A stretch of DNA of 36,906 nucleotides, taken from the IMG/VR virus record IMGVR_UViG_638341087_000007. One strand, 5' to 3'. This stretch comes from a virus (taxonomy: Duplodnaviria; Heunggongvirae; Uroviricota; Caudoviricetes). The notes under the pieces were generated by a model that did no database searches, had not been told where the DNA came from, and saw only the letters and a program-made list of their open reading frames with translations. The position numbers were made by a program, and so were the translations under genes. Below, in pieces: positions 1 to 36,906 of the stretch; within the stretch, counting starts at the first letter, position 1, and the number at the start of each line of letters is the position of its first letter.

Positions 1-188
1 AGAACGGCGACTGATGCTACAGTGGTGGGCCGATTTTCTGGATGCAAACAGAGAAAGATTTATCAGTCCATTTGAATATGCAAAGATTAATAATCCATTA
101 AAACAGTAATCATCCCGGGCAAATGCCCGGGAACCTACTCCAGGATTATTTTCTTTGTTAAAAAAACAGACAAAACGGTATTAACTTC

Positions 189-1743
189 GTAAGCGTACAG
201 CGAGGGCCGTATTGACGGGGATGTGTTATTCAGCTGGCAGTGCTATGCGCCACGGAAGCAGTTCGCTGACCCGGTTGACCGGCCAGTCTGCTATGACGCC
301 AAGCACATGGCGAAGGTAGCTTTCTGGATCCACGTCATTCAGTTTGCACATCCCGATCAGGCTGTACAGTAGCGCTCCCCGCTCACCACCATGGTCAGAG
401 CCGAAGAACAGGAAGTTTTTACGACCCAGACTGACCGCCCGCAGGGCATTTTCAGCGATGTTGTTGTCGATTTCCACCCAGCCATCGTTCGCATAGTACG
501 TCAGTGCCGGCCACTGGTTAAGTGCGTACGCGAACGCCTTCGCCAACTCTGAGTGTCGCGACAGGGTCTTCATCTTTTCACGCAACCAGCTTTCCAGGGA
601 TTTCAACAGCGGTTTCGTTTTTCGCTGACGTTCAGCAAGCCGCTGCTCTGCCGGCATTCCCCTTATATCCGCCTCTATGGCGTACAACTGACCGATCTGC
701 TCCAGGGCTTCTTCCGTCAGTGCTGACGGGATGCGGACGTGCACATCGTGGCTCTTTCGGCGGGCATGAGCCCAGCAGGCAGCTTCCGTTATCCCACCAT
801 TGCGATACAGCTCGTTGAACCCGGCGTACGCATCCGCTTGCAGCACACCGCTGAAGCAGGCAAGATGAGTCTGCGGATGGATGCCTTTTCTGTCCGGGCT
901 GTAAGCGAACCACACTGCAGGTGCCAACGCTGACCCTGTATTGCGGTCATCACGAACATACGCCCACAACCGCCCGGTCTTCGTCTTCTTATTACCCGGC
1001 AGCAGTACCTGGACCGGGGTATCATCGGCATGGAGTTTGCCGTCAGTCATGACATAGCCATGAAGCGCCTCTTCCAGCGGAGACAGCAGCCGGCAGCATG
1101 CATCCACCCAGCCCGACAGCAGTGAACGCCTCAGCTCCACACCTTGCCGGCCGTATATTTCTGACTGGCGATACAGCGGGGTGTGCTCTGCATACTTCGA
1201 GGTCAGCACGCGGGCCAGCAGTCCCGGTCCGGCGATACCCCGCTCGATGGGCCGCGAAGGTGCAGGTGCCTGCACGATGGCATCGCACTGAGTACAGGCA
1301 TGTTTTTCCCGTACCGTCCGGATAACCCGGAAGGCGCTACGCATCAACTCCAGCTGTTCGGCGGTATCCTCGCCCAGATAGCTCAGTGAACCGCCGCAGT
1401 TCGGGCAGCACGGCGCCGCAGGCAACAGTCGCTTTTCGTCACGGGGTAGTGATTCAGGGAACGGCTTACGGGTGCGGGTCTGACGCAACGGACGCTGTAC
1501 TGCCGGGTCATACACCCTACCAGTCAGCGTATCGCTCTCTTTCTGAAGCCGGTTCAGATCGGCTTCCATTTGTGCGATACGGCGGGAGACTTTTTCGGAA
1601 CGACTGCCGAAGTTCATCCGGCGGAGTTTATCCAGCTGCGCCTGCAGATGGTCTATTTCGCGCTCCCGGTTGCTCAGCTTTTCCTGCAGGGCGTGGATCA
1701 GCGCTTCCTGTTCGGCCAGGCGCTGTTTCAGCAGGAAGATTGA
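189..1743 (-). mobile_element. IS66-family insertion sequence remnant (right end plus tnpC), interrupted by the prophage left end
   Basis: Terminal GTAAGCG at 189-195, which I recall as the typical IS66-family IR start; TnpC-like frame stays open on the minus strand up to about 1743 with no start codon. Confidence 0.7.
226..1617 (-). pseudogene. IS66-family transposase TnpC, 5'-truncated
   Basis: 463-aa ORF with IS66 TnpC-like sequence (leucine-zipper region, CxxC zinc motif, DDE-like core). In-frame coding continues upstream of the annotated Met to 1743 ([21 protein letters not shown]...) without an initiator, so the N-terminus is missing. Confidence 0.8.
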
Positions 1744-1937
1744 TCAGACATGAGATAAATGAAGGGGGATCTGTGAGATAAATAACGAATTGGAGTGGGT
1801 TAACATGGGTTCTGGTGAACAGAACTGAAATTCTTTTCCGCTATACGATAGATAAGTCGGGCATTGAAATCATCCTTCCTGGCAACTTAGAATCGAGTTT
1901 GCTGAAACATGACCCGCAACAAAAAGGATGATTCCAA

Positions 1938-2099
1938 TGACTACTCAAAACAATAAGCATGATAGCCTGGATTACTCAGAAAAGCCCAAAAGCAAGCACA
2001 TCGTGACGTTCGAGCGCGATTCCGGTAGAAAAGGAGAATCGTCTTCCTCTGCCAATAAAACCACTATGCCGGCAGCCCCTGCCCCAGGGAAAAAATAAA
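1938..2099 (+). CDS. small hypothetical protein (53 aa, Lys-rich), low confidence
   Basis: ORF MTTQNNKHDSLDYSEKPKSKHIVTFERDSGRKGESSSSANKTTMPAAPAPGKK with AAGGA about 10 nt upstream; not in the ORF track because under 60 aa. Confidence 0.2.
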
Positions 2100-2101
2100 C
2101 A

Positions 2102-2734
2102 TCATTCATCGTTCGTTGCACGAACGCGCCTGATCTCCACTCTGGCAATCTGATCTGCTGGAATATAGGTTGCCAGAGCTCCCCAGTACTTATCAACCAC
2201 GCCTTTATACTCTTCCCATTCGTTACTGCCTGAAGGGCTGCTGTGCGTGACGTAAAGAACCATATCGCCTTTATTCCCCAGGGTAAACGGACCGTTAGGC
2301 CACTCTTCAAAGTTCCCTGGCAGCCGTGACATCATACCGGAACCATCGCGAAGAATCACTCTGACCTCGGTAACGCTGAAGCCTGTTTGATCAAACATTG
2401 CCTGCCATGCTGAGCTGGTATCGTCAGACCATGAAATATCATTATTCCACAGTAATCTGTACATCCATTTGCGACCGTACCTGCGCCACCACGCACCGCA
2501 TGTAACGGCACACAGAAGTGCTGGTGGTGTTGCCAGCCAGGCATTCAGACCTGCCCACATAACAGCCTGGTAAGCCATCATTGCTGTCAGGCCAAAAATC
2601 AGCGAAGAAAAAGTCACCTCAATGGGCTTGTGGTGATCCTTCAGTCCCACATTCGCAATAAAATACCCAATATAGCCACTGGTCAGGGTCACCAGTGTTG
2701 CCCATGGCAGATTTAACAACGAAACGTCAAACAT
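2102..2734 (-). CDS. membrane protein, 3 predicted TM helices plus soluble C-terminal domain; function unknown
   Basis: ORF 2102..2812; likely start is the internal Met (MFDVSLL...) at 2734 preceded by AGGGAG. Three hydrophobic helices then a roughly 110-aa hydrophilic domain. Sits just after the early-operon terminator. Confidence 0.6.
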   Translation of the reverse strand: MFDVSLLNLPWATLVTLTSGYIGYFIANVGLKDHHKPIEVTFSSLIFGLTAMMAYQAVMWAGLNAWLATPPALLCAVTCGAWWRRYGRKWMYRLLWNNDISWSDDTSSAWQAMFDQTGFSVTEVRVILRDGSGMMSRLPGNFEEWPNGPFTLGNKGDMVLYVTHSSPSGSNEWEEYKGVVDKYWGALATYIPADQIARVEIRRVRATNDE

Positions 2735-2772
2735 ATTTTCTCCCTGCATCCTGAATACTAAAGAGAGAGCAT

Positions 2773-2807
2773 AAAAAAAGCACGGTAAGGGGTCTACCGT
2801 GCTTTTA
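2773..2807 (-). terminator. rho-independent terminator after mor
   Basis: Perfect 9-bp stem AGCACGGTA/TACCGTGCT with 7-nt loop, flanked by an A6 run on plus strand, which is a U7 run on the minus-strand transcript. Confidence 0.65.
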
Positions 2808-2848
2808 TACAATAAGGAGATTTTTGAAAGGACTTTAACAAGCAGGAA

Positions 2849-3247
2849 TTATCTGGATTTGTTAACGTCTTTCGTCTCCTCTGGCAGATCTTCATCAAAC
2901 AACCTGCCCTGCATCCGATCCAGTTCTTCTTTTCTGACCCGCTTAACCACGCTGTAGACCCACTGAAGCGAAACACCAAACTTGCGGGCCAGTTCGTGGT
3001 GGTTGCGTCCGTTAAACTCCCTGAAGATTTCCCGGTCGCGCTGACTGACCTTCCATACCATGCCCATCGGGAAATAAACGTTTTGCCCGCCCCAGACCTG
3101 CATCATTCGGTTCGCGACGGCCTGACCAATCTGGTCGGCAATTGCGGGCTCAATATCAATAATCTCGCGAACGGTCTCAGAGGTATGCTGTGCCAGCTCC
3201 ACCAGGAGTTCCGGCCCTTTACTTCGAAACTGATTCAGGTCGCTCAT
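2849..3247 (-). CDS. mor: Mor/C-family transcriptional activator
   Basis: 132 aa; C-terminal HTH region (...REFNGRNHHELARKFGVSLQWVYSVVKRVRK) resembles Mu Mor as I recall it; position downstream of GemA. Confidence 0.7.
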   Translation of the reverse strand: MSDLNQFRSKGPELLVELAQHTSETVREIIDIEPAIADQIGQAVANRMMQVWGGQNVYFPMGMVWKVSQRDREIFREFNGRNHHELARKFGVSLQWVYSVVKRVRKEELDRMQGRLFDEDLPEETKDVNKSR

Positions 3248-3671
3248 GTTTTACTCCCGCAGCTCTGTGCTGCCACTTCTTCAGTTTCTCAATAACACTG
3301 CTTGCCTGTTCAGTATTGAGCCAGCGCAGGGCGCTGATGCCCGTTTCCCGCTTGATCCACCGCGCTAATGCATTTTCTGAACGGTCACGAACAATGCCGG
3401 CAGCAGCCATTTCAAGCCATAGCGCACGGATTTTCCTGGACTGCGGATGGTTATCCAGCGGTAAACCGGAGCTGGCTTTTCCGGCAGGCTTAACGCGAAA
3501 GCCTTTCCTTTTCATGGATTCCAGCACGCAGTTTAGTTGTGTGGTATCCATTCCTTTGGTTGAGGCTTTACCGGTCAGCCCCTGTAACATCTGGCGGTAG
3601 GTGTCTTCATCCATACCCAGTTCATTACGGGCAATATGAATGAGCTGGATAAGACGTTGTTTAGTCATCAT
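3219..3671 (-). CDS. GemA/gp16-like protein (DUF1018 family)
   Basis: N-terminal TKQRLIQLIHIARNELGMDEDTYRQ is characteristic of Mu gp16/GemA-like proteins; start taken at internal Met, overlaps mor as in Mu. Confidence 0.65.
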   Translation of the reverse strand: MMTKQRLIQLIHIARNELGMDEDTYRQMLQGLTGKASTKGMDTTQLNCVLESMKRKGFRVKPAGKASSGLPLDNHPQSRKIRALWLEMAAAGIVRDRSENALARWIKRETGISALRWLNTEQASSVIEKLKKWQHRAAGVKHERPESVSK

Positions 3672-3876
3672 CGTTGCTCCTTTTACCTGCGCCACCGATA
3701 TAATCGACATATAAAGGAAGCGCCACAGGCCAGCACAGGAACATCACCGACCAGCTAATCCAGTAGCCGGCACCACTGTAACGTGAATAAAACCCTGAAC
3801 GGCGGTGCAGTTCAGCAGTACACCAACCGACAAAACAATACCAGAACAGGGCACATACAACAGATTCAGCAGTCAT
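3661..3876 (-). CDS. small membrane protein (71 aa)
   Basis: Hydrophobic ORF starting at internal Met of the 3661..4032 track ORF; overlaps the 3' end of the upstream gene by 11 nt. Confidence 0.4.
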   Translation of the reverse strand: MTAESVVCALFWYCFVGWCTAELHRRSGFYSRYSGAGYWISWSVMFLCWPVALPLYVDYIGGAGKRSNDDD

Positions 3877-4096
3877 TCTGAATATCCCCCCAACTGATAT
3901 GAATATTACGGGCAGCAATGACAGGGTCGTTATTCCACCATGCACCTGACATGTATTTTTCAACCTGTTCGCGTCCGGCAATAACACCAATTGTGATCCC
4001 CGGCCTGACGTTCTTAAAAAAGGCGCGGGCAAAAAGGTATCTGGCAGATATTCGGCAGGCTTTTAATTTCCGGCTGTTACCTGATAGCGTAATCAT
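3866..4096 (-). CDS. hypothetical protein (76 aa)
   Basis: ATGA stop/start overlap with the upstream gene at 4093-4096 and GGAGG RBS; translational coupling supports a real gene. Confidence 0.5.
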   Translation of the reverse strand: MITLSGNSRKLKACRISARYLFARAFFKNVRPGITIGVIAGREQVEKYMSGAWWNNDPVIAARNIHISWGDIQNDC

Positions 4097-4776
4097 CTGG
4101 CCTCCAGTTTCTGTTGTTCCTGCCCACTGACCGGGCGGTGCAGTCTGACGTTCTGCCCTTCACGAAACCCCGCATAGCGCGAGGCGTCGCCATTGCGGCT
4201 TCTTCCCGGTTGACGCGCCCTGGTGGTTTGCGTTTGCGGGTATTTATGTTCCAGCCACTGTTGCATCAGTTCACGCTCATCATCGGTCAGGGCAAAGGAC
4301 TGTATTTTACTGATAACGGCCAGTACCCAGCCTTCAGCAAACTGGTCTCCACGGCTGGTACGGGTGGCGTTTTTTATTCTTTTGTTCTGTGCGCTGATAT
4401 ACTGCTGACGCGCCTTTTTCAGCTGGCGGACCAGCACTTCCCAGGTGTACGCAGCCAGTGCCGCTCGTTCCCGGTTACCGTAGAACCCCACAGACGGATG
4501 CGTGCCGGGGTGAATGATGGAGTTAACACCAAATGCCTCGCGGATGATGTTCATCAGGCCCAGCATGTAGCGCGGTGGACGGAGACTGCCTGTCGGCCAG
4601 TAATGACTGATGGTTTCATCAATATCACTCATAGCAATGTCGGAATGTGTGATGCCGTGAACATCCATCAGTTTACGGGCTCGGCGCAGTGCCAGAGCGG
4701 CCTCGTGCGGGTTGCCGGATGCGGCCAGCGCCAGCAACTTTTTCAGTTTCTCAATGTGTTTATTCTGGTCTGTCAT
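4093..4776 (-). CDS. DUF2786-like phage protein
   Basis: N-terminal IEKLKKLLALAASGNPHEAALALRRARKLM motif typical of DUF2786 proteins; start at 4776 forms an ATGA overlap with the upstream gene stop. Confidence 0.5.
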   Translation of the reverse strand: MTDQNKHIEKLKKLLALAASGNPHEAALALRRARKLMDVHGITHSDIAMSDIDETISHYWPTGSLRPPRYMLGLMNIIREAFGVNSIIHPGTHPSVGFYGNRERAALAAYTWEVLVRQLKKARQQYISAQNKRIKNATRTSRGDQFAEGWVLAVISKIQSFALTDDERELMQQWLEHKYPQTQTTRARQPGRSRNGDASRYAGFREGQNVRLHRPVSGQEQQKLEAR

Positions 4777-4988
4777 TGTTCTGTATCTCCGGTATTTTTC
4801 TGCCGTTTCCATGCCCGGACAGCGTCGGACAGCTCTTTCAGGCTGTATGCTGCTTTAAGCTTTTCCCATAACCACTGTGTTGTTATGTGCATCAGCAGGG
4901 CAGCCAGGGCTGCCCCCGCACTGAGGCATGTCGCCAGGCCAGTAAGAATCAGTATCCATGCGGTGATTTCCCTGAGTATGTCAGCCAT
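4773..4988 (-). CDS. small membrane protein (71 aa)
   Basis: ORF with one clear TM segment (ITAWILILTGLATCLSAGAALAALL). Confidence 0.4.
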   Translation of the reverse strand: MADILREITAWILILTGLATCLSAGAALAALLMHITTQWLWEKLKAAYSLKELSDAVRAWKRQKNTGDTEQ

Positions 4989-5002
4989 TGAATGCCTCCC
5001 GG

Positions 5003-5299
5003 TTACTCGTTCGTGTAAATCACGCCCAGTCGTGCAGCCAGACGTTCCAGTTTTTTCTGTTTGTGGAAGTCAATCAGCCGGTCCATCCCCTGAAGGCGCA
5101 ATTGCTCTGTCATGATTTCCACGTCTGCCAGCTCTGCCGCGAGGTCGCTTTCGCTGCCCTGTCCGTTCAGATTGCGGGCAGCACTGGCCGCCAGTTCAGC
5201 GGCCTCTTCTGTCAGTTTCAGGGCCTGTGCGTCCGGCCCGAAACGCTGCAGGGCCAGACGGTAGAGGGCGGTGCGGGTGAGTATGGTGTTCCGTGTCAT
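5003..5299 (-). CDS. MazG-like nucleotide pyrophosphohydrolase domain protein (putative)
   Basis: 98 aa with EEAAEL ... ELADVEIM ... KQKKLERL spacing that resembles the EExxE / ExxD metal-binding motifs of small MazG-like proteins. Confidence 0.45.
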   Translation of the reverse strand: MTRNTILTRTALYRLALQRFGPDAQALKLTEEAAELAASAARNLNGQGSESDLAAELADVEIMTEQLRLQGMDRLIDFHKQKKLERLAARLGVIYTNE

Positions 5300-5308
5300 G
5301 CCGCGCCC

Positions 5309-5581
5309 TCAGTGCTTCCGGTCAACAATGATGTGCAGGTCGCCTTCTGCAGTGATTTCCATCCGGTACGGCACCTCGTGCTCTGCCGCGTGGGTGAGTG
5401 TGTTCACTAGTATCTGCAGGGCGGCCTCCTTTCCGTTAGTCGCCACAATGGCCTGCGTGGCCATGCTGATTAACGCCGTCAGGGCGCACATGATATCGGT
5501 GAGGTCACGGCATTCACACTCGTTGAGATACCGTTCAACAAGGGCGCGGGTGCGCTGATGTGCTTCCTGTGGGGTAATCAT
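5309..5581 (-). CDS. hypothetical protein (90 aa)
   Basis: ORF in the early operon with tight spacing to neighbours. Confidence 0.4.
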   Translation of the reverse strand: MITPQEAHQRTRALVERYLNECECRDLTDIMCALTALISMATQAIVATNGKEAALQILVNTLTHAAEHEVPYRMEITAEGDLHIIVDRKH

Positions 5582-5772
5582 TGCGCTTCCTCCCTGTCAG
5601 GGCGGGAGAATTCCATAACGGGCACATCTGCCGAAAAATGCTGACTGCAGTACGGACAGACCAGGGTGACGCGTACTGCAGGTACGTGGTATTTACCGGA
5701 CATCACGGCGATGGCGCTGTGAAAACGCAGGGCTGTTATATCCCTCTCGCACTGAATACATTTAAATATCAT
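5578..5772 (-). CDS. hypothetical zinc-ribbon-like protein (64 aa)
   Basis: CxxC ... CxxC cysteine pairs (CIQC, CPYC); AGGAGA RBS; ATGA overlap with the downstream gene. Confidence 0.45.
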   Translation of the reverse strand: MIFKCIQCERDITALRFHSAIAVMSGKYHVPAVRVTLVCPYCSQHFSADVPVMEFSRPDREEAQ

Positions 5773-5869
5773 AATTTAATTCTCCTCTGTTTCCGGCGTG
5801 CAGAAGCCCACGGCGCTGACGCCGGAATAAAAAAGAAAATGTTTTTATTAAATAATTAACGTGGTGTGT

Positions 5870-6400
5870 TTACTGCACATCCTGCTCAAAAGGAATTATT
5901 GAAAAATCCTCAATATCACTTTTTATGGTAATGCCGGGAATATTTTTCACGGCCTCTTTTTCATTCAGAATGGCATCTTTATTTATTTCCTCTTTTACAC
6001 GAATAAAGCGCTCAAGCCCCAGACGTCTCAGTAGTTCAATAACATTATCCGCTCCACGGATACTGACTGATGGCGGACGGTTTCGCCATTGCACCTCGCC
6101 GGTGGTGAGGTTAGCGAACTTCACCTTCCCGTTGCCGGTCAGTTCATCACGGTGTGCCTCACACCATGTCTGGATACCGGACTGCAGTTCTGACATGCGT
6201 TTTTTCAGGCTCTCGGTGAGCGGGGCATAACGTGCGGTGATATCGCCAATGGCGTCATTCATTTCTGTTTCAGCCCTGACCAGTTCACGTTGTGCGTCAC
6301 CGAGCAGTCTGATGCCCTCAATGACCTCTTCGCGTGTCCCCGGTACCCAGAGTGCCGCTGCGGACTTGATACGTTTTGCCCCTTTTGTACTTTTTGCCAT
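5870..6400 (-). CDS. gam: Gam-like host-nuclease inhibitor (Ku-like DNA-end binding protein)
   Basis: 176 aa; close match along the whole length to Mu Gam as I recall it (KRIKSAAA..., ETEMNDAI..., RPPSVSIRG..., GIEDFSIIPFEQ). Confidence 0.88.
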   Translation of the reverse strand: MAKSTKGAKRIKSAAALWVPGTREEVIEGIRLLGDAQRELVRAETEMNDAIGDITARYAPLTESLKKRMSELQSGIQTWCEAHRDELTGNGKVKFANLTTGEVQWRNRPPSVSIRGADNVIELLRRLGLERFIRVKEEINKDAILNEKEAVKNIPGITIKSDIEDFSIIPFEQDVQ

Positions 6401-6427
6401 ATTTTATGATTTCTCCGGTTGTGCTGA

Positions 6428-6697
6428 TTACCACAAAGATTCCGGCCACACGACGCGACAGCCGTGCAGTTCGAAAACGCCCTGACGGAAATGTCCCCTG
6501 TGGTCATGACCGGTATACAGATAACTGGCTTTCCCCTGTTCAAGCATGCGCATGCAATGCGCACTCCGGGAAACGCGGATGACAGGTTTATTGCCCCTGA
6601 TGGTGATGCTTTGTACATCCGTGTTCGTTGCCATAAGCGCCATAATGGCTGACTGCACTTTGCTGATTTGCTGGTTGATACCTGTGATGGATTTCAT
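6428..6697 (-). CDS. hypothetical protein (89 aa), positional analogue of Mu kil
   Basis: ORF immediately downstream of B; no recognisable motif. Confidence 0.4.
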   Translation of the reverse strand: MKSITGINQQISKVQSAIMALMATNTDVQSITIRGNKPVIRVSRSAHCMRMLEQGKASYLYTGHDHRGHFRQGVFELHGCRVVWPESLW

Positions 6698-6699
6698 TA

Positions 6700-7866
6700 T
6701 TAAACCCCTTTGACAACGTCAGCGTTGACCTGTGGAACCCCGATTTCAGCGGCCAGATTCATGGCGGCTATCACCAGGTTACTGACGGCCAGCGGATACA
6801 GCAGGCTGACCCTGTTTTTACGATGACTTCCCGGATTGCTCAGGCGGGCACGTATGGCATCCACTGCGCCGGCGTCCATAATGTCCGTCAGTTGTTTACC
6901 GGCCCGTTGCAGTTTGAACGTCAGAAACTCTTCAAGGTTATTGTCGAGAGGCAGAAGTTCGACCACCTCACAGCGCTGAACGACTTCACGGACTTCCATA
7001 TTGCGTTCAGACAGTTTTGTCGCCAGTTCCGGCTGGCCAATCAGCACGATGGACAGCAGTTTTTTGAAACCGGACTCCAGCTCAAAAAAGCGTTTGAGGT
7101 GTTTCAGTGTCGGAACGGGCAGACTGTGGGCTTCCTCAATCACCAGAACGTGGCTGAACCCCGCCTGGCGGCTGTCTTTCAGGACGCGATGCAGCTGGCG
7201 AAAGCGGGCGTCCTGACTGCGTCTGATGCTTTCCAGTGGTGCGATGGTACTGATAATGGCTTCGGCAATCGCTGCTGCCTTCAGGGTTTTCCCTTTCACA
7301 TCGTTGTCTTCCATGGCGATGACGTATGGCTCGATAATAATTACCGGCGCATTCTCGCGGTTGATACGTTCAGTCAGGTCACGGCGCAGCGTGGATTTAC
7401 CCGCACCGGACTCACCGATGACAGCCATAAACCCGCCATGACGGGCTGTCTGGTACAGCGCCTCACGCACGTAGCGAATGTCCGGGGTGGTGAACACATC
7501 ATCAGAACCCTGCATGGCTTCGTCGGCGAACGGGTCACGGAAAAGACCAAACGCTTTTTTGGTTGCTGGAAATAACACCTGTTTTTTGAGTAACATATTC
7601 TCTTCCTCACTGAGGCTCGTTTTATCTGTGGTACCCGCTGTACGGGGCGTGGCCGCGCCCTGTACAGCATCAAAACTCTTCGCTGTATCAATCCCCTGAC
7701 TTTCCAGCCAGGACGCAAGACGCCGGCGCACTTCTCCGGGGCTGGTGCGGGGCCACGCGTTATGATTCACAATCTGGGCCAGCGTGGCCTCAGAAACATC
7801 GACAGCTCTCGCCACCACCGCCTGTGGAATACGGGCCTCTTTCAGTTGCTGCTTCAGTACCAGCAT
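6700..7866 (-). CDS. Mu B-like AAA+ ATPase, transposition target-DNA activator
   Basis: Walker A GESGAGKST, Walker B VLVIEEAH; N-terminal HTH; start chosen at the Met preceded by AAGGAGG (7866) rather than 7893. Confidence 0.8.
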   Translation of the reverse strand: MLVLKQQLKEARIPQAVVARAVDVSEATLAQIVNHNAWPRTSPGEVRRRLASWLESQGIDTAKSFDAVQGAATPRTAGTTDKTSLSEEENMLLKKQVLFPATKKAFGLFRDPFADEAMQGSDDVFTTPDIRYVREALYQTARHGGFMAVIGESGAGKSTLRRDLTERINRENAPVIIIEPYVIAMEDNDVKGKTLKAAAIAEAIISTIAPLESIRRSQDARFRQLHRVLKDSRQAGFSHVLVIEEAHSLPVPTLKHLKRFFELESGFKKLLSIVLIGQPELATKLSERNMEVREVVQRCEVVELLPLDNNLEEFLTFKLQRAGKQLTDIMDAGAVDAIRARLSNPGSHRKNRVSLLYPLAVSNLVIAAMNLAAEIGVPQVNADVVKGV

Positions 7867-7876
7867 GTTTCCCTCC

Positions 7877-9646
7877 TTAGTTGCCGTTAACAATGCTGAT
7901 AACGCTGCTGCGGGCCGGCGTGGTCAGCGTGGCCATGACTTCATCCAGTGCAGCTTCCGGTACGCCGTCCGGGTACTGTGCCGTTAACTGGCGGTAATGT
8001 TCCGGCGTCCAGGTAAGGCCGTTGGCGCTGAACTTCCCGCGCAGGGCTTTCGCGGCCTCCACATGAGTCATGGGACGCTGTTCAGTGCGCGGTCCGCGTA
8101 CGTCAGAGGCCTGACCTCGCTTCGGCATATAGGCCGGAAGTGTGGCGTCATCAATATGTTTATACGGGTCAAGCCGCCCGCCGAACGGCAGCGCCTTCGC
8201 CTTGCGTGCGGCAGCTGCATCTGCGGCGTTGTCTGTACCGGTGACCAGCGCTTCGGTTTCTTTTGCCGCCGTCTGTGCCGGTGTTTCCGGCAGGGCTTTG
8301 TAACTTTCGCCAAATACCGCCGCGCCTTCAGCAAAGCCAAACTCGTTCTTTCTGACCTCTTCGACCAGGAAGAACGTCTCGTGGCCGTCCTCACCGGTCA
8401 GAACCACCTGTGCCACATCGCTGCGCCACGGGTTACGGGTAATCATCAGTTTTTCACCGACCAGTACGCCCGGTACCGTTGATACGTCAAATTCAGTGCC
8501 CCGGAACGAGACACGAAGTTTTGGCGTGACTTTGCGGAGTTCTGGTGCCGCCACAGCCAGTTCACGGCATACCTCAACGGAAGGCGCTTTTTTCAGCTGC
8601 TCAGCAGTAATCTTCAGCCAGATATCCGTGCGGGTTTTACCGTGGCGGCTGTGAACAGCCGTGGCGTTAAAGTGGCTGCGCCATTTCGCGGCCAGCGCGT
8701 TGAGTTCTTCCAGACTGTGAACCGGCCGGAACTTCAGACCCGGCTCCAGCTTGCGTTCGATAATGTCACGCGCCTTTTCCACCTGTCCGGTGGCGCGGGC
8801 GTTATGCGGCTTGTGCGCTATCAGGTCGATGCCCAGTGAGCGACACATGTTTTTCGTCATACCCGCGGTGTTTGCCGAGCCGGGGTCGAGATAGAGTATT
8901 TTCGGCACGCCGTGCAGCACGTCTGCGCCGCCACGCTCCTGCATGGCGTTGATAAGCACAGAACACAGGTTCTCACCGGATTCCGCCCCCGTCACATACT
9001 CAACGTAAATCCAGCCGCTGGCATGGTCGGTAATCTCGTAACTCCACACGCGGTCACTGGCGATACGGGCAAGGTTAGCGGGCTTGTTCTTGTAGAACTT
9101 CGCGCTGTCCATCACCTGCAGCCCTTTATGTCCATTGCTCAGGTAGTAAAGCGTGCAGAGTGAGGCGTCAATCTGCCAGACATGATTGGGATGCAGACTG
9201 GCCACTTCGGTATGTGGTGCAGGGGCATCCAGTTGTTCCGGGTGCAGGCCATAGTTACGCAGGGCACGGCTGATGGCATCTTCAGACAACGGGAAAAACT
9301 CACCGGTGGTTTCATCTGTTCTGCCTGCGGTGATAAAGCCGTTAGCCCGCAGGGTTTCCACTGCATCTGCGATGGAATAGAGACGCTTACCGTTCTTGCG
9401 GGTGGCCTCACGCAGTGTGGCAGATATCAGCGCGGCTTCGTCGCGGGTCAGGGCGCTGCGCCCGGCATCGGCGCGTTTTTTGCGTTTATCAGTCACAGAG
9501 ACCTCCTTCAGCCTGCGCAGCAGAGTGGCGCGGGACATGCCAAGTTCAGCACAGGCAGCGTCGTATACTGCACCGCGTTTACCATGCCCCGCGTCACGTG
9601 CCGCGCGGGCGACATAAACCAGTCGTTCAGTCAGGGCAGCATTCAT
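7877..9646 (-). CDS. Mu A-like DDE transposase (integrase catalytic core)
   Basis: 589 aa; N-terminal HTH, retroviral-integrase-like core with candidate catalytic residues (HVWQIDAS..., YLDPGSANT...); followed by the B ATPase as in Mu. Confidence 0.8.
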   Translation of the reverse strand: MNAALTERLVYVARAARDAGHGKRGAVYDAACAELGMSRATLLRRLKEVSVTDKRKKRADAGRSALTRDEAALISATLREATRKNGKRLYSIADAVETLRANGFITAGRTDETTGEFFPLSEDAISRALRNYGLHPEQLDAPAPHTEVASLHPNHVWQIDASLCTLYYLSNGHKGLQVMDSAKFYKNKPANLARIASDRVWSYEITDHASGWIYVEYVTGAESGENLCSVLINAMQERGGADVLHGVPKILYLDPGSANTAGMTKNMCRSLGIDLIAHKPHNARATGQVEKARDIIERKLEPGLKFRPVHSLEELNALAAKWRSHFNATAVHSRHGKTRTDIWLKITAEQLKKAPSVEVCRELAVAAPELRKVTPKLRVSFRGTEFDVSTVPGVLVGEKLMITRNPWRSDVAQVVLTGEDGHETFFLVEEVRKNEFGFAEGAAVFGESYKALPETPAQTAAKETEALVTGTDNAADAAAARKAKALPFGGRLDPYKHIDDATLPAYMPKRGQASDVRGPRTEQRPMTHVEAAKALRGKFSANGLTWTPEHYRQLTAQYPDGVPEAALDEVMATLTTPARSSVISIVNGN

Positions 9647-9649
9647 TGG

Positions 9650-10561
9650 TTATGCCTCCAGCCCGTTAATCTGTGGCGTCGGCTCAGTCAGCCATGAAGG
9701 CGCGACATCGCCTGTTGGCTCGTCCGGCAGGTCAAATGTGGAGCGCAGGCTACGCGCTGTGCTTTCCAGTTGACAGACCAGGCCTGCCATGAAGTCTCTG
9801 GGGGTATCAATCATGTTTTCAGCACAATATGCGCACAGTGTCTCAAAAGCGCTGGACAGTCGAACGGCGATGGCAGATTCCGCCTCAACCGCTAATGCTG
9901 TCACTTCCGCCCGCAGCTTCTTAACCTCCTCATCAGGCTCAGGCGGCTGAATACGGGATTTCTTCTCCAGTCTGGTGGAGAGTGAGTCTATTTTTTCATT
10001 TTTGTCGGCGAGTACGCGCTGTTGTGCTGCGTTGGTTTCGCGCGCTTCGCGCAGGGCCTGACGCAATTCACGTACTGACATGCGATCAACATCGTCAAGC
10101 GTCAGTCCTGCGACTGTGCCGCCGTCGGCCAGTTCAGCAAGGTCGTCGTCATCTTCAGCAACAAGTTCAAATAATTTTGCCTTACCTAAAAGCGACAACG
10201 TTGTCGCTTTTGGCTCTAGTTTTGGTGAAAGGTATTTCAAAGATGCTTTCATCATTCGTTGTGCTGCGCGCACATGCAGACCAAGTTGTTCTTCTACAAT
10301 TCCAACAAAGTCCCCGTGTGGTTCATTTTCTTTGAGAATAATAAGTCGTTTACCTGCTTCCAGCATGGCCTCAGCGCTCTGTGCCATATAAAACCGAGCC
10401 TCATGAACTATGCGATCACGCTCATAGGGCTGACCATCGCCAAACTGCTGCATGATCTCCATGCGATGCTGTGTCATGGCGTTCAGACTGACATTGAGAT
10501 CATCCGACAGCGGTACCTCGGCGTTCAGTTCAGTGTTAATCGGTGATTTGGTGCGTCCCAT
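9650..10561 (-). CDS. hypothetical protein (303 aa), acidic with coiled-coil region
   Basis: ORF between ner and the transposase; no family recognised. Confidence 0.5.
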   Translation of the reverse strand: MGRTKSPINTELNAEVPLSDDLNVSLNAMTQHRMEIMQQFGDGQPYERDRIVHEARFYMAQSAEAMLEAGKRLIILKENEPHGDFVGIVEEQLGLHVRAAQRMMKASLKYLSPKLEPKATTLSLLGKAKLFELVAEDDDDLAELADGGTVAGLTLDDVDRMSVRELRQALREARETNAAQQRVLADKNEKIDSLSTRLEKKSRIQPPEPDEEVKKLRAEVTALAVEAESAIAVRLSSAFETLCAYCAENMIDTPRDFMAGLVCQLESTARSLRSTFDLPDEPTGDVAPSWLTEPTPQINGLEA

Positions 10562-10571
10562 TTATTACTCC

Positions 10572-10886
10572 TTACAAACGACTACCTGAAATGACACGTT
10601 GGTTGATTTCGTTAATGCGATCCTGTGCACGTGCCATCTCGTTACTGTGGGCCATAGCGATCTGCAGTAACTGGATGCCCGGCGCGAAACGCCCGTTTTC
10701 CAGTTTCAGGGCCAACCCTTCTTCAATGAGGGTGTTGAGTGCCCGGTTGATGTTTGCCGGTGACTCGTGCAGTGCTGCCGCCAGTTCACCGTTGGAAATA
10801 CCGTTCAGGGCATGACCGCGCAGCGCTTTGAGTACCCGGAGGATGCGACTGCCGGAGCTTGAAACATTCGTCTTACTCATCTGCAT
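10572..10886 (-). CDS. IclR-like winged-HTH DNA-binding protein (HTH domain only)
   Basis: SRILRVLKALRGHALNGISNGELAAALHESPANINRALNTLIEEGLA matches the IclR-type N-terminal HTH pattern. Confidence 0.5.
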   Translation of the reverse strand: MQMSKTNVSSSGSRILRVLKALRGHALNGISNGELAAALHESPANINRALNTLIEEGLALKLENGRFAPGIQLLQIAMAHSNEMARAQDRINEINQRVISGSRL

Positions 10887-10932
10887 ACCTCTTTTGCGAT
10901 ATGTGATAACCTTTTACAAAGACTCAAAATCT

Positions 10933-11121
10933 TCAGGCTGCCTGAGCTGTTGATTTCAGCCCCAACTTCACGGCGATTTCATGGGATTTACCGTAACGGG
11001 CTTTGGTCTGCCCATTGAGAACGCGGTATACCTCATTGCGGTTGTAGCCGTTTTCTTCTGCCCAGCGGGTGAAAGTGATCCCGCGCTGGCGGAAGAGAGC
11101 TTTGACTTGTTCTGCAGTCAT
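10933..11121 (-). CDS. ner: Ner-like DNA-binding protein (Cro-like early regulator)
   Basis: 62 aa; HTH resembling the Ner/Nlp family; AAGGAGA RBS; divergent from the repressor gene. Confidence 0.65.
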   Translation of the reverse strand: MTAEQVKALFRQRGITFTRWAEENGYNRNEVYRVLNGQTKARYGKSHEIAVKLGLKSTAQAA

Positions 11122-11221
11122 CGTTGTCTCCTTTGTTGATGCAATGATGTTTGCCTTATGTGTGATAGATTATGGTGCAGATTATCTCACCAGTCAACTT
11201 AAAGAGTGCAGAAAAACTCAC
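11122..11221. promoter_or_regulatory. repressor/ner intergenic operator-promoter region
   Basis: 100-bp AT-rich divergent intergenic region with direct AGATTAT repeats and the element GTGAGATAAT on the minus strand. Confidence 0.5.
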
Positions 11222-11560
11222 ATGATCGGGTTACGTATTAAAGAAGAAAGAGAGCGTCTATCTCTTACACAGCAAGGGTTGGCTGATGCTATAGGTGTGG
11301 CAAAGAGAACTTTCATTGATTGGGAAAAAGATCGCACTTCTCCTACTGCAGTGCAGTTATCTGCACTATCAGAAATCGGTGTAGATATTTTGTATGTAGT
11401 TACTGGGGTGCGGAGTCAGCCTGTTGTTGCACCTTATGTGTCACAAGAAAAGAAAGAGTTAATGGATGCATTCGACGAAATGAGCCCCGAACAACGGAGG
11501 GCAATTCTTGAGGTCGGCAAAGTCTTCATTCAACCCAAACCAAGCAAACTCGCAGGCTGA
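11222..11560 (+). CDS. XRE-family HTH repressor (putative immunity repressor)
   Basis: Starts MIGLRIKEERERLSLTQQGLADAIGV, an XRE-type HTH; the 11069 start in the track would overlap ner. Confidence 0.6.
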   Translation: MIGLRIKEERERLSLTQQGLADAIGVAKRTFIDWEKDRTSPTAVQLSALSEIGVDILYVVTGVRSQPVVAPYVSQEKKELMDAFDEMSPEQRRAILEVGKVFIQPKPSKLAG

Positions 11561-11645
11561 TTTTGACCTGGACACAAAGGGCGCGTGGTTGATCTGGATG
11601 CTTTCAGAAAACATCGCCAGTGACATAGTGGAAGTTGTTTGGTTT

Positions 11646-11677
11646 ACCGGAAAGCATTGTGCTTTCCGGTTTTGTTC
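11646..11677 (+). terminator. rho-independent terminator downstream of the repressor gene
   Basis: Perfect 10-bp stem ACCGGAAAGC/GCTTTCCGGT, 5-nt loop, followed by TTTGTTC. Confidence 0.55.
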
Positions 11678-12440
11678 AGAAGTTGCAGATTACCAGTTCA
11701 CGGCGTGGCGTGGGTTTCCCCGCCAGACTGTAGTTGATATTCACCGTCTGTATGTTCAGTTCAGTGAACACCCGACGCATCTGCGGAATGTCATTCACCG
11801 AGATAATCATCTTTCCTCTGATGCACCGTGCCAGTTCTGCGAGTAGTGTGTAGTTCTCTTCAGGAAAATCCACACCATAGCCTTCCGTCCCCAGATAGGG
11901 CGGATCACAGTAGAACAGCGTGTGCGGACGGTCATAACGCTTAATGCACTGGTGCCAGTCCATGTGTTCTATCACCGTTCTGGAAAGCCGCAGGTGTGCC
12001 GCTGACAGTTCTTCTTCAATCCGTAGCAGGTTGAAGCGTGGCGGGGAGGTGGTGGAGGTGCCGAAGCTGTGCTCTGCCACCTTGCCCCCAAACGCCTGCT
12101 TCTGGAGGTAGTAGAACCGTGCCGCACGCTGGATATCCGTCAGTGTTTCTTCCGGGGTGATCTGCAGCCATTTGTAGATCTGCCGGCTAACCAGCGCCCA
12201 TTTGAATTGGCGGACAAATTCTTCCAGATGATGCTTTACTACCCGATACAGATTTACCAGTTCACCGTTGATATCGTTAATGACTTCGATCTTGCTGGGA
12301 GTCTTGAGAAAATAAAGTGCTGCTGCGCCGCAGAATGGCTCCACATAGCAGGTATGGAGTGGGAACTGAGGCAGAATGTGTTTGGCCAGACGACGTTTTC
12401 CCCCAATCCAGGGGACGATGGGTAAAGATTGTTCTTTCAT
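11676..12440 (-). CDS. Dam-like DNA N6-adenine methyltransferase (orphan)
   Basis: N-terminal PIVPWIGGKRR AdoMet-binding motif and DPPY catalytic motif; the track start at 12521 is a GTG, first ATG is at 12440. Confidence 0.85.
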   Translation of the reverse strand: MKEQSLPIVPWIGGKRRLAKHILPQFPLHTCYVEPFCGAAALYFLKTPSKIEVINDINGELVNLYRVVKHHLEEFVRQFKWALVSRQIYKWLQITPEETLTDIQRAARFYYLQKQAFGGKVAEHSFGTSTTSPPRFNLLRIEEELSAAHLRLSRTVIEHMDWHQCIKRYDRPHTLFYCDPPYLGTEGYGVDFPEENYTLLAELARCIRGKMIISVNDIPQMRRVFTELNIQTVNINYSLAGKPTPRRELVICNF

Positions 12441-12590
12441 TATCTGTAAGCCTTTTTCATTAGATGAAAATGCGATAGGCTTCCCTTGTTCTCGAGAACG
12501 GAAGAGCCTCGGTTGACTCACAGCTCATACCTGTAAGTTGATGACTCGCCTTGTGTTCGCTGCACAAGGTGAGTCGCTCTTTTCATGTTA
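12395..12590. repeat. direct repeat copy A (dam 5' end, leader and hairpin)
   Basis: About 190 bp, by-eye roughly 70% identical to 13029-13222; hairpin at an equivalent position. Confidence 0.6.
12543..12585 (+). terminator. hairpin plus T-tract (terminator-like RNA element) in repeat A
   Basis: 13-bp stem GACTCGCCTTGTG/CACAAGGTGAGTC (one G-U pair on the plus-strand transcript), 7-nt loop, followed by CTCTTTTC. Confidence 0.45.
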
Positions 12591-12634
12591 TTTGCATATT
12601 TCATGGGCGACAATTAAAGGGAGTTACTAATACC

Positions 12635-13015
12635 ATGGCCCCAAAAAATATTGAGCGGTTTAATGAAATAGTTGGTGAGATATTTGGGAGACTCTACGAA
12701 TCTTTCCCCGTCAAAATTGATATAAAGGCAGTTGATATCGTTAGACAGAATGAACTTACTTTTTTTCTTGATACCGTAGACTGGCTTAAAAACAGTGGCT
12801 ATTTAATCGGGGCGCGTAGTTCTGGGGGGATCCACAACGCAGTGCTAACGGCTAAAGGTCTTGAGGTATTAAACGCTACGCCTGGAAGTCTGGAAAAACC
12901 GTTGGGGGCCAGAATATCTGACTCTATAAAAATTGAAGGGAAAGAAGCGTTGCGATCACTGGTTAGCCAGACTCTAGGAATAGGTCTGCAATATATGTCT
13001 CGTGGTCTTATGTAA
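12635..13015 (+). CDS. small protein X1 (126 aa), predicted winged-helix-like; paralogue of 13479..13883
   Basis: Shares with X2 the pattern G-x-IF-x-RL ... F-x-DT-x-x-WL ... VLT-x-K-x-L-x-x-LNA-x-P; AT-rich codon usage compared with flanking phage genes. Confidence 0.6.
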   Translation: MAPKNIERFNEIVGEIFGRLYESFPVKIDIKAVDIVRQNELTFFLDTVDWLKNSGYLIGARSSGGIHNAVLTAKGLEVLNATPGSLEKPLGARISDSIKIEGKEALRSLVSQTLGIGLQYMSRGLM

Positions 13016-13075
13016 TATCGCAAGGCAGCGTTTGCCACCAATCCATGGAACGATGGGTAATGTCTGCGTTTTCAT
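12974..13075 (-). pseudogene. dam 5' fragment (second, truncated copy)
   Basis: Minus-strand translation MKTQTLPIVPWIGGKRCL... matches Dam N-terminus MKEQSLPIVPWIGGKRRL...; frame ends after 33 codons and overlaps the X1 3' end. Confidence 0.6.
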
Positions 13076-13222
13076 AATCTGTAAACATTTTACAATTATT
13101 AAAAATATGGCAGGCTAGTCTGGTCTCACGAGACTGACTGAACCTCGGTCGGCTCACAGTGCATTCCTGTGGGACGATGGCCAGCCCGGCTTTCGGGTGC
13201 CGGGCTGGTCGTTCTTTCATGA
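13029..13222. repeat. direct repeat copy B (dam' 5' end, leader and hairpin)
   Basis: Alignable with 12395-12590. Confidence 0.6.
13181..13221 (+). terminator. hairpin plus T-tract (terminator-like) in repeat B
   Basis: 10-bp stem CCAGCCCGGC/GCCGGGCTGG, 8-nt loop, followed by TCGTTCTTTC; same relative position as the hairpin in repeat A but different stem sequence. Confidence 0.5.
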
Positions 13223-13264
13223 TGCGGCAGGGATAGTGGGATTTCTGTTAATGCGGTTTAGGGA

Positions 13265-13480
13265 TTATCCGGGGTGATTTTCTGACCTTATCTGGTCCAG
13301 GGCGTAAGTGAGCCCTTCTGCAAAAACAGAAGTATCAAACTGCTTTTGTATTTCCTGAAAATGAACAGTGGCACGACAGATACTCAGTTCTCCGCGATGT
13401 AACCGGATAATATCTTCCAGAACATTGTTCACTGCTTCAGCACGGCGCTGATGTTCTGTTAACGTTAATCGGGGATTCAT
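13265..13480 (-). CDS. hypothetical small protein (71 aa), uncertain
   Basis: Strong RBS (AAGGAG, 6 nt spacing) but its start codon overlaps the X2 start codon divergently by 2 nt. Confidence 0.3.
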   Translation of the reverse strand: MNPRLTLTEHQRRAEAVNNVLEDIIRLHRGELSICRATVHFQEIQKQFDTSVFAEGLTYALDQIRSENHPG

Positions 13481-13883
13481 GATGCACTCCTTAAATGATG
13501 ATTTTTATGTACTCACCGGCAAAATATTCTGCCGATTACTGAACACGCATCCGGTACCTCAGGTTTTGATTTATTCTGGTTTTTTCGATATCCCGGACCA
13601 GGTTGATCACGACCAGAAAAAGTGCCGGTATTTTATTGATACGCTGATATGGCTTCGGGATAACAGCTATATTCGTTACTCTCAGTTGCTGGCTGTGGGA
13701 GCGGCTGATGTCGTCCTCACGGAAAAAACGCTCTGTCTGCTCAATGCCATGCCGACCTTTCTGCAGCCCCGGCCCGTGCCATTTAAAGAGTCGCTTCTGG
13801 ATGCAGTAAAAACCGGTGAAAATGCAGTCATCGCTGAATGCGTATCCCGGATTATGCGTTACGTGTTTAATGAACGTAAGTGA
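13479..13883 (+). CDS. small protein X2 (134 aa), paralogue of X1
   Basis: Same conserved pattern as X1; GGGGA RBS; 3' end overlaps the convergent NTPase gene by 25 nt. Confidence 0.6.
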   Translation: MMHSLNDDFYVLTGKIFCRLLNTHPVPQVLIYSGFFDIPDQVDHDQKKCRYFIDTLIWLRDNSYIRYSQLLAVGAADVVLTEKTLCLLNAMPTFLQPRPVPFKESLLDAVKTGENAVIAECVSRIMRYVFNERK

Positions 13884-14602
13884 GGTTTATCCGTTGTCTG
13901 CATAATCCCGATAGCCAGTGCGAGGGGAAGCAATTCCGGGGAAACTTTTTCAAACAGCGATTCCCATTCTCCTCTCGCCATCACTCTGTCCAGCCCGCCC
14001 TCCAGCTGCATTTCAGCAATCTTCCTGATTTCCCGGAACAACGCCGCTTTGATCTCTTCATGCTCAGCTTTATTTTCCGGTGTCAGAATGTATTCGTCGA
14101 AGAACCGGGGAGGCTGGTTAACGGGGATTGTGTTCACCGGGATGTGTTCCTGCTTCCCGTACTTCGGGGCCGAAAAACATTCTGTTGGCTGACCAGCGAG
14201 TTTACGTAACTCCTTCATGAGCAGCTCCTGATCGTAAACTGTCATCAGTGCCGCAATGGTGGCATGCAGTGCATCGGGCAGTATCCAGGGTTGCCGGCCC
14301 GTGGGGCATATAACATCCAGCAGCTCATTCGTCCGACAGATACGCTCCTCGCCGTATGACAACAGGCCCTGTCCCGTGTATTCCTCCAGCCTGATCACTG
14401 TGCCAGCCCGTGGCTTCTGCCAGGTCGTCAGATCATCGCCACTCATACGGCGCTCATTCTCCACGTCAGCAGCATCGACAATGACGCTGTTTCCGAGTTC
14501 CTGTTTCACCATCTCTTCTATCCGCGCCAGTACGTAACTTTTACCGCTGCCCACAGGACCGGACACAGTGACAGTGATGACCGGATTCAGTGTGTGCGTC
14601 AT
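13859..14602 (-). CDS. P-loop NTPase, small-kinase-like N-terminal domain with unknown C-terminal domain
   Basis: Walker A VSGPVGSGKSYV near the N-terminus, candidate Walker B VIVDAAD; no further family recognised. Confidence 0.6.
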   Translation of the reverse strand: MTHTLNPVITVTVSGPVGSGKSYVLARIEEMVKQELGNSVIVDAADVENERRMSGDDLTTWQKPRAGTVIRLEEYTGQGLLSYGEERICRTNELLDVICPTGRQPWILPDALHATIAALMTVYDQELLMKELRKLAGQPTECFSAPKYGKQEHIPVNTIPVNQPPRFFDEYILTPENKAEHEEIKAALFREIRKIAEMQLEGGLDRVMARGEWESLFEKVSPELLPLALAIGIMQTTDKPHLRSLNT

Positions 14603-14662
14603 ATCGTATTCTCCTCTGTGAATAATTCATCGTTTATCCTGCACACCCCGTATCCCCGGCTC

Positions 14663-14683
14663 TCTTAACGCGCTTTAAAATCC
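14663..14683 (+). promoter_or_regulatory. candidate late promoter element upstream of the lysis operon
   Basis: TCTTAACGCGCTTTAAAATCC, one of three similar elements upstream of late operons. Confidence 0.4.
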
Positions 14684-14732
14684 TTCGCGCCCTGTATTTG
14701 TGATGCTGTCTCCACCAGACAAGGAGACACAC

Positions 14733-15083
14733 ATGAAAAGCCTGAAAAAATTCATTCCCCCTGTTAAAAAACCTCGCCTCAGCGGCTGGCTGCTGACCTC
14801 AGTGCTGTTGCTGGGCACCATCGCTCTGGTCTCGCCACAGCAGTTGCCTGTTGTGATCTACAAGCTGGCACTCATCACGCTGGCAGCAGTGCTGGGTTAC
14901 TGGCTTGACCGTTCGCTCTTCCCCAAAGCCCGTCCCGGTCAGTACCTGAAACATGACGACAGGCTGATGGCTGAAGGGCGTTTCCCTGTGCAGACCGGCC
15001 TTCACCTTGTGTTTGCTGCTGCGTTAATCCGCCGTGCACTGATTGTTGCAGCGATCTGTCTGGCTGTGGCAACAGGACTGTGA
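14733..15083 (+). CDS. membrane protein, putative holin
   Basis: 116 aa with three hydrophobic segments, first gene of the lysis cassette, AAGGAG RBS; holin role is positional inference only. Confidence 0.4.
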   Translation: MKSLKKFIPPVKKPRLSGWLLTSVLLLGTIALVSPQQLPVVIYKLALITLAAVLGYWLDRSLFPKARPGQYLKHDDRLMAEGRFPVQTGLHLVFAAALIRRALIVAAICLAVATGL

Positions 15084-15085
15084 CC

Positions 15086-16451: not shown

Positions 16452-16774
16452 CACTGCAGGTTGAATTCTGGACGGTGGTGAGTTTTTTGCTCACCTTCAT
16501 GGGGTTTGTGGGAGGGCTCGCCAAATGGTTGTTCAGTAAAACAGAAGAACGCCAGGCGGCACGATTCGCCTCCCTTGAGCAGGCCCTGCAACAGTCCGCC
16601 TCCAACTGGGGCGAACTGGAAAAAGAATTTATGCGATTTAAAGCGGATTTACCGCTGAATTATGTCCGTCGCGAGGATTATATCCGTGGCCAGACAGTCA
16701 TCGAGGCCAAACTGGACGCGCTCTACAACAAACTGGAAGTGGTACAGCAGTACCGCAATACCGGAGGTCAATAA
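16448..16774 (+). CDS. Mu gp25-like membrane protein (DUF2730-like)
   Basis: N-terminal TM, conserved position after the lysis genes, ATGA overlap with the i-spanin stop. Confidence 0.45.
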   Translation: MTLQVEFWTVVSFLLTFMGFVGGLAKWLFSKTEERQAARFASLEQALQQSASNWGELEKEFMRFKADLPLNYVRREDYIRGQTVIEAKLDALYNKLEVVQQYRNTGGQ

Positions 16775-17085: not shown

Positions 17086-17087
17086 TT

Positions 17088-36804: not shown

Positions 36805-36805
36805 A

Positions 36806-36906
36806 AACGTTGGTTTGGGGGAAGGCTCAGCGCTGCCCGTTGGTGTGCCCGTTCCGTGGCCCTCAGCCACACCGCCAGCAGGGTGGCTGAAATGTAACGG
36901 CGCAGC
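36806..36906 (+). repeat. tail-fibre crossover-region repeat, copy 2 (start of a start-less alternative C-terminal cassette)
   Basis: Begins 2 nt after the fibre stop codon, same orientation, 479-bp period, no start codon in its frame; runs to the window end. Confidence 0.7.

Follow-up and report, generated by a model that had tools for sequence, protein, structure and literature searches.

The window examined here, by which is meant the whole 36,906-nt IMG/VR virus record IMGVR_UViG_638341087_000007 (Caudoviricetes), contains near its left edge the join between a broken copy of ISEc8, an insertion sequence (IS) of the IS66 family, and the left end of a transposable phage. Positions 1–109 (plus strand) are occupied by the 3′ end of a tyrosine integrase gene, which is host flank from a tRNA-Phe-associated genomic island and is colinear with Escherichia coli FORC 064. 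This flank is colinear with the tRNA-Phe island of many E. coli genomes, the order in FORC 064 being tRNA-Phe, integrase and ISEc8. The right 1,552 bp of the 2,442-bp ISEc8 follow at 189–1740 (minus strand), starting with its terminal inverted repeat GTAAGCGTACAGC (189–201; beginning GTAAGCG), a sequence found at both ends of the intact FORC 064 copy. Phage DNA starts at 1741.

The minus-strand frame 226–1743 translates into an IS66-family TnpC. Pfam scanning of this frame returned DDE_Tnp_IS66 (354.6 bits), LZ_Tnp_IS66, zf-IS66 and DDE_Tnp_IS66_C, and the NCBIfam model transpos_IS66 matched with 454 bits against a cut-off of 180, in agreement with an initial annotation, made from the letters alone, that had placed the left end of the prophage inside an IS66-family transposase gene. 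Upstream, a TGA at 1744–1746 terminates the frame, which has lost its native start codon and whose first in-frame ATG lies at 1617. The breakpoint was fixed by pairwise alignment with the intact ISEc8 of FORC 064, the kind of alignment that the initial annotation had proposed as a check. The result showed that identity, with a single mismatch within window 1–1740 (position 1222), ran through ...CAGCAGGAAGAT (1740) and was zero thereafter. Thus an open frame without a start codon was correctly recognized at the outset, but the gene is cut at 1740/1741 rather than at about 1743. Since the start codon of an intact tnpC would correspond to window position 1764, the break lies between tnpC codons 8 and 9, and the tnpC body retained at 226–1740 (minus strand) lacks its first eight codons. 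The part of ISEc8 absent from the window amounts to 890 bp and comprises the tnpC codons for MNDISSDD, tnpB, tnpA and the left inverted repeat; no complete ISEc8 (tnpA, tnpB, tnpC and two inverted repeats) was present in the window, the copy there being truncated. A megablast match to ISEc8 that reached 1756 was rejected, as the pairwise alignment showed it to be a weak gapped over-extension, homology stopping at 1740. The truncated tnpC retains a 463-amino acid (aa) open reading frame (ORF) from the ATG at 1617, which could be expressed only if transcription proceeds outward from the left end of the phage. The unrelated contig AIHD01000061 also has a 463-aa call with this sequence, and there an intact tnpB lies directly upstream, as in a full-length-type ISEc8.

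The first ten bases of the phage, TGATCAGACA (1741–1750, plus strand), were compared with the ends of related prophages. Near-identical prophages open with TGATCAGACATGAGATAAATG directly after unrelated host DNA, namely otsA in strain M-17 and fepE in strain JNEC-KY180, and unrelated DNA followed by TGAT[C/T]AGA... was found in six E. coli genomes (including these two) and at 29 IMG/VR loci with 27 distinct flanks. Because unrelated DNA directly precedes the same sequence across all of these genomes and loci, window position 1741 is the terminal base of the phage. The initial annotation had put a TG start around 1741, and this position proved to be exact. The right end of the relatives reads ...TTTATCGCGCGGCGCATCA, so that the TG at window 1741 has its counterpart in the CA with which the M-17 prophage and other relatives end on the right; TG..CA termini are typical of Mu and B3-like phages (PMC8705779). 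Insertion has occurred at many unrelated sites, comprising otsA, fepE, ygjJ, the slyB region, the inaA region, ISEc8 and the 27 distinct IMG/VR flanks. Over about 34.5 kb (window 1741–36300 compared), one single-nucleotide polymorphism separates the window from each of the M-17 and JNEC-KY180 prophages, and since these near-identical copies occupy different loci (otsA and fepE) in unrelated strains, the phage must have moved very recently. In addition, IMG/VR contig 2737471845_000031 matched window 1937–19646 with two mismatches and ends before the junction. At least 80% of the left-end 7.2 kb (window 1757–9000) was present in 613 of 5,426 complete E. coli genomes (about 11%).

The exactness of the terminus bears on the possibility that the junction is an assembly artefact, that is, a chimeric join of an IS-ending contig and a phage contig. 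Six Ns and apparently collapsed tail-fibre repeats near the right edge mark the assembly as one of draft quality, and ISEc8 is multicopy. However, the join falls exactly at the terminal nucleotide of the phage and within unique IS sequence, not at a repeat boundary, and a random mis-join would reach that base only by coincidence. We therefore regard an artefact as extremely unlikely.

Immediately inside the terminus lie two direct copies of TGAGATAAAT on the plus strand, at 1751–1760 (outer repeat, L1; offset 11–20 from the terminus) and at 1774–1783 (inner repeat, L2; offset 34–43, 23 bp from L1), each a candidate transposase-binding site. Both copies had been noted in the initial annotation at these positions, and a search of the window on either strand found no other exact copy; by chance, a given 10-mer would be expected about 0.07 times in 2 × 36,906 positions. 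Reading inward from the right terminus of the M-17 prophage, one finds TGATGCGCCG CGCGATAAAC GTACCTATTT CCGTGAGATA AAT.... This end carries an exact inverted inner copy, ATTTATCTCA (the reverse complement of L2), at offset 34–43, whereas at offset 11–20 there is a degenerate outer copy, CGCGATAAAC (GTTTATCGCG), and no exact reverse complement. The reverse-complement motif that had been anticipated at the right end is thus seen in relatives in exact form for the inner site but not for the outer one. A second right-end variant in E. coli carries CGCGATAAAT and GTGCGATAAAT at the same two offsets with a different spacer.

The same two-site layout was found at both ends of Burkholderia phage BcepMu, the outer repeat at offset 11–20 being TGAGATATTT at the left end and CGCGATATTT at the right end, and in a looser version at the ends of Pseudomonas phage B3 (outer repeat at the left end, TGAGAAATAC); the spacers are unrelated. 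As a less biased test, IMG/VR right ends were retrieved with only their first 20 nt specified. The result showed that the inner motif G[ACT]GATAWW[TC] was present at offset 34/35 in 57 of 71 distinct right ends, against a background of 1.5e-4 per nt in the same loci, and that the spacers in these ends are highly variable. Among left ends retrieved by the outer site alone, the inner site was present in all 12 distinct sequences.

The repeats amount to a phylogenetic footprint, being inverted between the two ends, keeping a fixed distance from the cleaved termini and having been conserved although the transposases share no more than 57–69% identity. This pattern fits transposase end-recognition sites, a role already proposed for the imperfect 23-bp terminal repeats of phiE255 and BcepMu (PMC2920897). 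Judged by this comparison, the two TGAGATAAAT repeats are most likely the transposase-binding sites of the left end, and the initial suggestion that they are candidate end-binding sites gains support from their inverted counterparts at the same right-end offsets in near-identical prophages, in BcepMu and, loosely, in B3. They could instead serve another end function, such as packaging (pac), binding of a repressor or Ner-type operator function, or binding of a host factor. The left end also carries conserved phased GGG repeats and a subterminal block (see below), the pac site of BcepMu-type phages has been placed at the left end (PMC2920897), and the assignment to the transposase comes from comparison of sequences. 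However, a pac site or an operator would not need a motif that is inverted at both ends at identical offsets and is conserved while the spacers diverge, and the corresponding 23-bp repeats of phiE255 and BcepMu have already been assigned to the transposase. A role of this other kind thus seems very unlikely.

Target duplication was determined from matched left and right junctions of related prophages. The result showed a 6-bp direct duplication in all 11 pairs, five from E. coli (TCCAGC, TCCTGT, TTGATT, TATGAT and ACTAGC) and six from IMG/VR contigs. A length of 7 bp was ruled out by the SA53-3 and Ec1117 junctions, and none of the 11 pairs fits a duplication of 5 bp with TG..CA termini, so that the 5-bp duplication expected in the initial annotation does not hold for these relatives. 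The length of 6 bp agrees with that published for B3 (PMC8705779). By extension from the relatives, the hexamer GAAGAT at 1735–1740 is the predicted duplicated target, and a simple insertion predicts that the right junction reads ...TTTATCGCGCGGCGCATCA, GAAGAT and GTCGTCAGAAGAGATGTCGTTCAT..., and that tnpB, tnpA and the left inverted repeat of ISEc8 (890 bp) come next. A weak target bias was also seen among the 27 left flanks, in which hexamer position −4 was C or T in 23 and never G, and position −3 was A in 14.

One of the 12 prophages examined, that of E. coli JB2 (NZ_CP182203.1), has flanks without a common 6-bp duplication (CGTTTT versus GGTGAG), and the JB2 genome contains two places matching the left 7.2 kb of the phage, which suggests recombination or a transposition-mediated rearrangement between copies. 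The JB2 prophage bears on whether the junction in the window, although formed at a genuine phage end, is secondary, having arisen by recombination between two copies or by intramolecular replicative transposition with an adjacent deletion or inversion. If so, the right end would neither be followed by the missing part of ISEc8 nor show a GAAGAT duplication. Transposable phages replicate by transposition, which gives rise to such rearrangements, as is established for Mu. Against this, 11 of the 12 prophages examined have matching 6-bp duplications, and there is no sign of a second copy in the window. A secondary origin is therefore considered unlikely.

The breakpoint, the phage terminus, the two-site ends and their conservation, the 6-bp duplications of the relatives, and the adjacent genes for a transposase and an ATPase make it highly likely that a transposable phage inserted by transposition into a chromosomal ISEc8 and that L1 and L2 are the left-end recognition sites of its transposase. 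The terminal TG of the phage adjoins the cut tnpC exactly, as would be expected from the original proposal of a transposable phage inserted into an IS. In the mechanism that we propose, a B3/BcepMu-type myophage would have transposed into ISEc8 between tnpC codons 8 and 9, splitting the IS, with L1 and L2 acting as the outer and inner left-end sites for the 589-aa transposase and the same pair, inverted, at the right end (R1 and R2). By analogy with Mu and Tn552, we infer that transposase protomers would bind L1/L2 and R1/R2 and pair both ends, after which the 3′-OH groups of the terminal CA would be transferred to target phosphates 6 bp apart. The adjacent AAA+ ATPase would capture the target, and repair or replication would duplicate the target hexamer. 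GAAGAT and the other 890 bp of ISEc8 should then lie at the right end of this prophage.

Several points weigh against this interpretation. The right end is outside the window, which stops at 36906, about 3.1 kb short of it as judged from the 38,313-bp M-17 prophage (the prophage length being about 38.3 kb). Neither junction was found in the collections scanned: the left junction gave no match in genome, metagenome and viral contig collections and none in complete E. coli genomes, and the predicted right junction (GCGCGGCGCATCA, N0–10, GTCGTCAGAAGAGATGTCG) gave no match in the genome, metagenome and viral contig collections. Simple insertion is thus a probable reading of the junction. The non-matching flanks of the JB2 prophage mean that secondary rearrangements do occur, and the role given to the repeats is drawn from their position and conservation.

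The transposase proposed to bind L1 and L2 is a DDE (rve) protein of 589 aa, TnpA, encoded at 7877–9646 on the minus strand (Pfam rve; phrog_310, 'transposase'). Next to it, at 6700–7866 on the same strand, lies the gene for the AAA+ transposition ATPase TnpB, the equivalent of MuB (Pfam AAA_22; phrog_296, 'DNA transposition protein'). Over at least 98% of its length, TnpA shares 68.5% identity with BcepMu gp09 and 56.6% with the TnpA of B3; its best NCBIfam match was a partial one to IS481, at 67.6 bits below the cut-off of 224. Sequence searches of the PDB with the transposase and the ATPase gave no informative match. A Mor-family late-transcription activator is encoded at 2849–3247 (minus strand; Pfam Mor, 148 bits). 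The early genes for Mor, the ATPase and the transposase thus occupy the minus strand between 2849 and 9646, and gam in the early region is also on the minus strand, whereas the late genes for lysis, head and contractile tail (sheath and tube annotated) are on the plus strand from about 14.7 kb.

Two ORFs lie between the left end and mor. The first phage gene, at 1937–2098 (plus strand), encodes 53 aa (phrog_15726; a hypothetical protein in M-17) and had no PADLOC match and, scanned as a 56-aa ORF (1928–2098), no Pfam match. The second, at 2102–2734 (minus strand), encodes 210 aa (phrog_12870) and had no NCBIfam or PADLOC match and, scanned as 2102–2812, no Pfam match. In BcepMu and B3, mor is the first gene, and phages PhiKM and KP12 are without this 1.15-kb two-ORF module; the interval that the two ORFs occupy appears to be a variable accessory ('moron') region. 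At the other edge of the window, the heads of tail-fibre cassettes are repeated at 36326–36430 and 36805–36906, and the six Ns stand at cassette-variable positions within 36350–36521. Window 36326–36906 has the appearance of an invertible host-range segment whose multiple cassettes have been collapsed, and a look-up of the tail-fibre ORF that contains the Ns returned no record. Relatives carry a serine recombinase gene just past the point where the window ends, adjoining the right end.

Two further features lie just inside L2. Phased TGGAG/TGGGT/TGGGT/CTGGT units are found at 1791–1816 (plus strand), and comparison showed that left ends (IMG/VR, BcepMu and B3) carry three to four TGGG(A/T)-type units in a phase of about 10–11 bp at this place, whereas none was present in the right ends compared. 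This left-end-specific array is a candidate pac site and may represent that site or some other left-specific signal, the pac site of BcepMu-type phages having been located at the left end (PMC2920897). The second feature, at 1808–1849 (plus strand), consists of a terminator-like hairpin (1808–1826) and then a T-rich block of about 26 bp (TGAAATTCTTTT...; 1824–1849), which resembles a subterminal element near both ends of related phages. The plus-strand pattern of the block is TG(T/C)AATTCTTTT.CA..AT...GAAAC, and its core, read inward from the right end, is AAAAGAATT(A/G)CA. It was found near IMG/VR right ends at an offset of about 57–85, and at about 40238–40266 in the M-17 locus. It has the same absolute orientation at both ends and is therefore a direct, not an inverted, repeat.

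The inner site at offset of about 34–43 at both ends, the left-only GGG array with its phase of about 10 bp and the block of about 26 bp with core AAAAGAATTRCA are observed features. They tentatively suggest, as a possibility that we do not favour strongly, that the ends of Tn552-related transposable phages have a richer and more asymmetric cis architecture than the published 23-bp terminal repeat. The GGG array and the subterminal block could be undescribed packaging, termination or directionality signals. The conserved inner site, the phased GGG array of the left end and the subterminal block in the same orientation at both ends go slightly beyond the literature consulted.

Taken together, the locus is an ordinary junction of a known and very common prophage with a known IS. 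It is already known in kind, and nothing about it is new in kind because the phage group, the transposase lineage, the termini and the length of the duplication have all been published. The analysis sets the boundary of the prophage at window 1741 and accounts for the broken copy of ISEc8. It also supplies criteria by which a very common E. coli prophage type can be annotated, namely termini of TG..CA, a duplication of 6 bp and, at each end, two GATAAAT-type sites. As copies that are nearly identical but occupy different loci imply, the phage is mobile at present, and otsA and fepE are among the genes that it disrupts.

The phage is a transposable myophage of the B3/BcepMu type, its rve transposase being related to that of Tn552. 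Phages that transpose by means of such an enzyme and have an inverted early region form a published group (PMC2628397, PMC5977238, PMC8705779, PMC3091646), the 'Tn552-related transposase' phages of Toussaint and Van Gijsegem, in which the BcepMu group has TG..CA termini and a Tn552-related Rve transposase (PMC2628397) and the early operon runs opposite to the late genes (PMC5977238, PMC3091646). These features were found here in the form of an rve transposase with an adjacent AAA+ ATPase, a terminal TG in the window with a terminal CA in the relatives, an inverted early operon with Mor, and insertion at many sites. In a phage collection, the transposase matched 69 records, and among the 40 listed were phages of Pseudomonas, Burkholderia, Stenotrophomonas, Ralstonia and Klebsiella as well as cyanobacterial phages; the two Escherichia phages among the matches listed were PhiKM and Phi06_2974 B, not Mu.

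Within the phage collection, Escherichia phage PhiKM (PQ738613) and Klebsiella phage KP12 came closest. PhiKM showed 94.6% nucleotide identity over 82% of window 1741–12000, and its transposase is 98.1% identical. However, homology to PhiKM and KP12 starts only at about 2890, the leftmost 1.15 kb or so (the end and the two accessory ORFs) being unmatched at that sensitivity.

The initial annotation had compared the phage end with Mu-type ends. The phage resembles Mu in being temperate and transposable, in its TG..CA ends, in its near-random, gene-disrupting insertion, and in having Mor and Gam homologues and Mu-like head genes. However, the duplication in its relatives is of 6 bp instead of 5 bp, the early genes are inverted, and two clear repeats were detected per end, whereas Mu has three MuA sites per end. 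Pfam scanning of the transposase found no MuA-specific domain, rve being the only match at E ≤ 1e-3, and the PDB search gave no sequence match to MuA. The comparison with Mu thus stands as far as a transposable phage with a TG end is concerned, but Mu proper (MuA-type) was ruled out, as the phage has a Tn552-related rve transposase, inverted early genes, no Mu-specific transposase domain and, in its relatives, no 5-bp duplication. Phage SfMu was also set aside as a comparison, since it is a true Mu relative and irrelevant here.

The likeness to BcepMu (Bcepmuvirus) and phiE255 lies in the early genes (mor through to the ATPase and transposase), which run opposite to the late genes, and in the TG..CA termini. 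The terminal layout of BcepMu is likewise similar, with TGA, seven further nucleotides, [T/C]G[A/C]GATAWWT, a spacer and a second copy at an offset of about 35. In contrast to BcepMu and phiE255, the phage studied here is found in E. coli, has two extra ORFs between the left end and mor, and has a multi-cassette invertible tail-fibre region; the serine recombinase of the relatives lies at the right end. It shows no similarity to them at the nucleotide level. Its likeness to B3 (Beetrevirus) comprises the TnpA with 56.6% identity, the 6-bp duplication (seen in the relatives), the TG..CA termini and the inverted early operon. The ends of B3 carry the related repeats TGAGAAATAC and GCGCGATAAAG, which are more degenerate than those of the phage in the window. 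B3 is a siphovirus, whereas the late genes in the window are annotated as those of a contractile tail.

Finally, Tn552 and the transposase of this phage belong to the same lineage (PMC2628397, PMC8705779). Tn552 of Staphylococcus is a small transposon and not a phage, and the similarity of the transposase to those of Tn552 and the IS481 type is remote. Each end of Tn552 carries two transposase sites of 23 bp in direct repeat, and its transposition generates duplications of 6–7 bp, a layout that matches the 23-bp spacing and the 6-bp duplication seen here.

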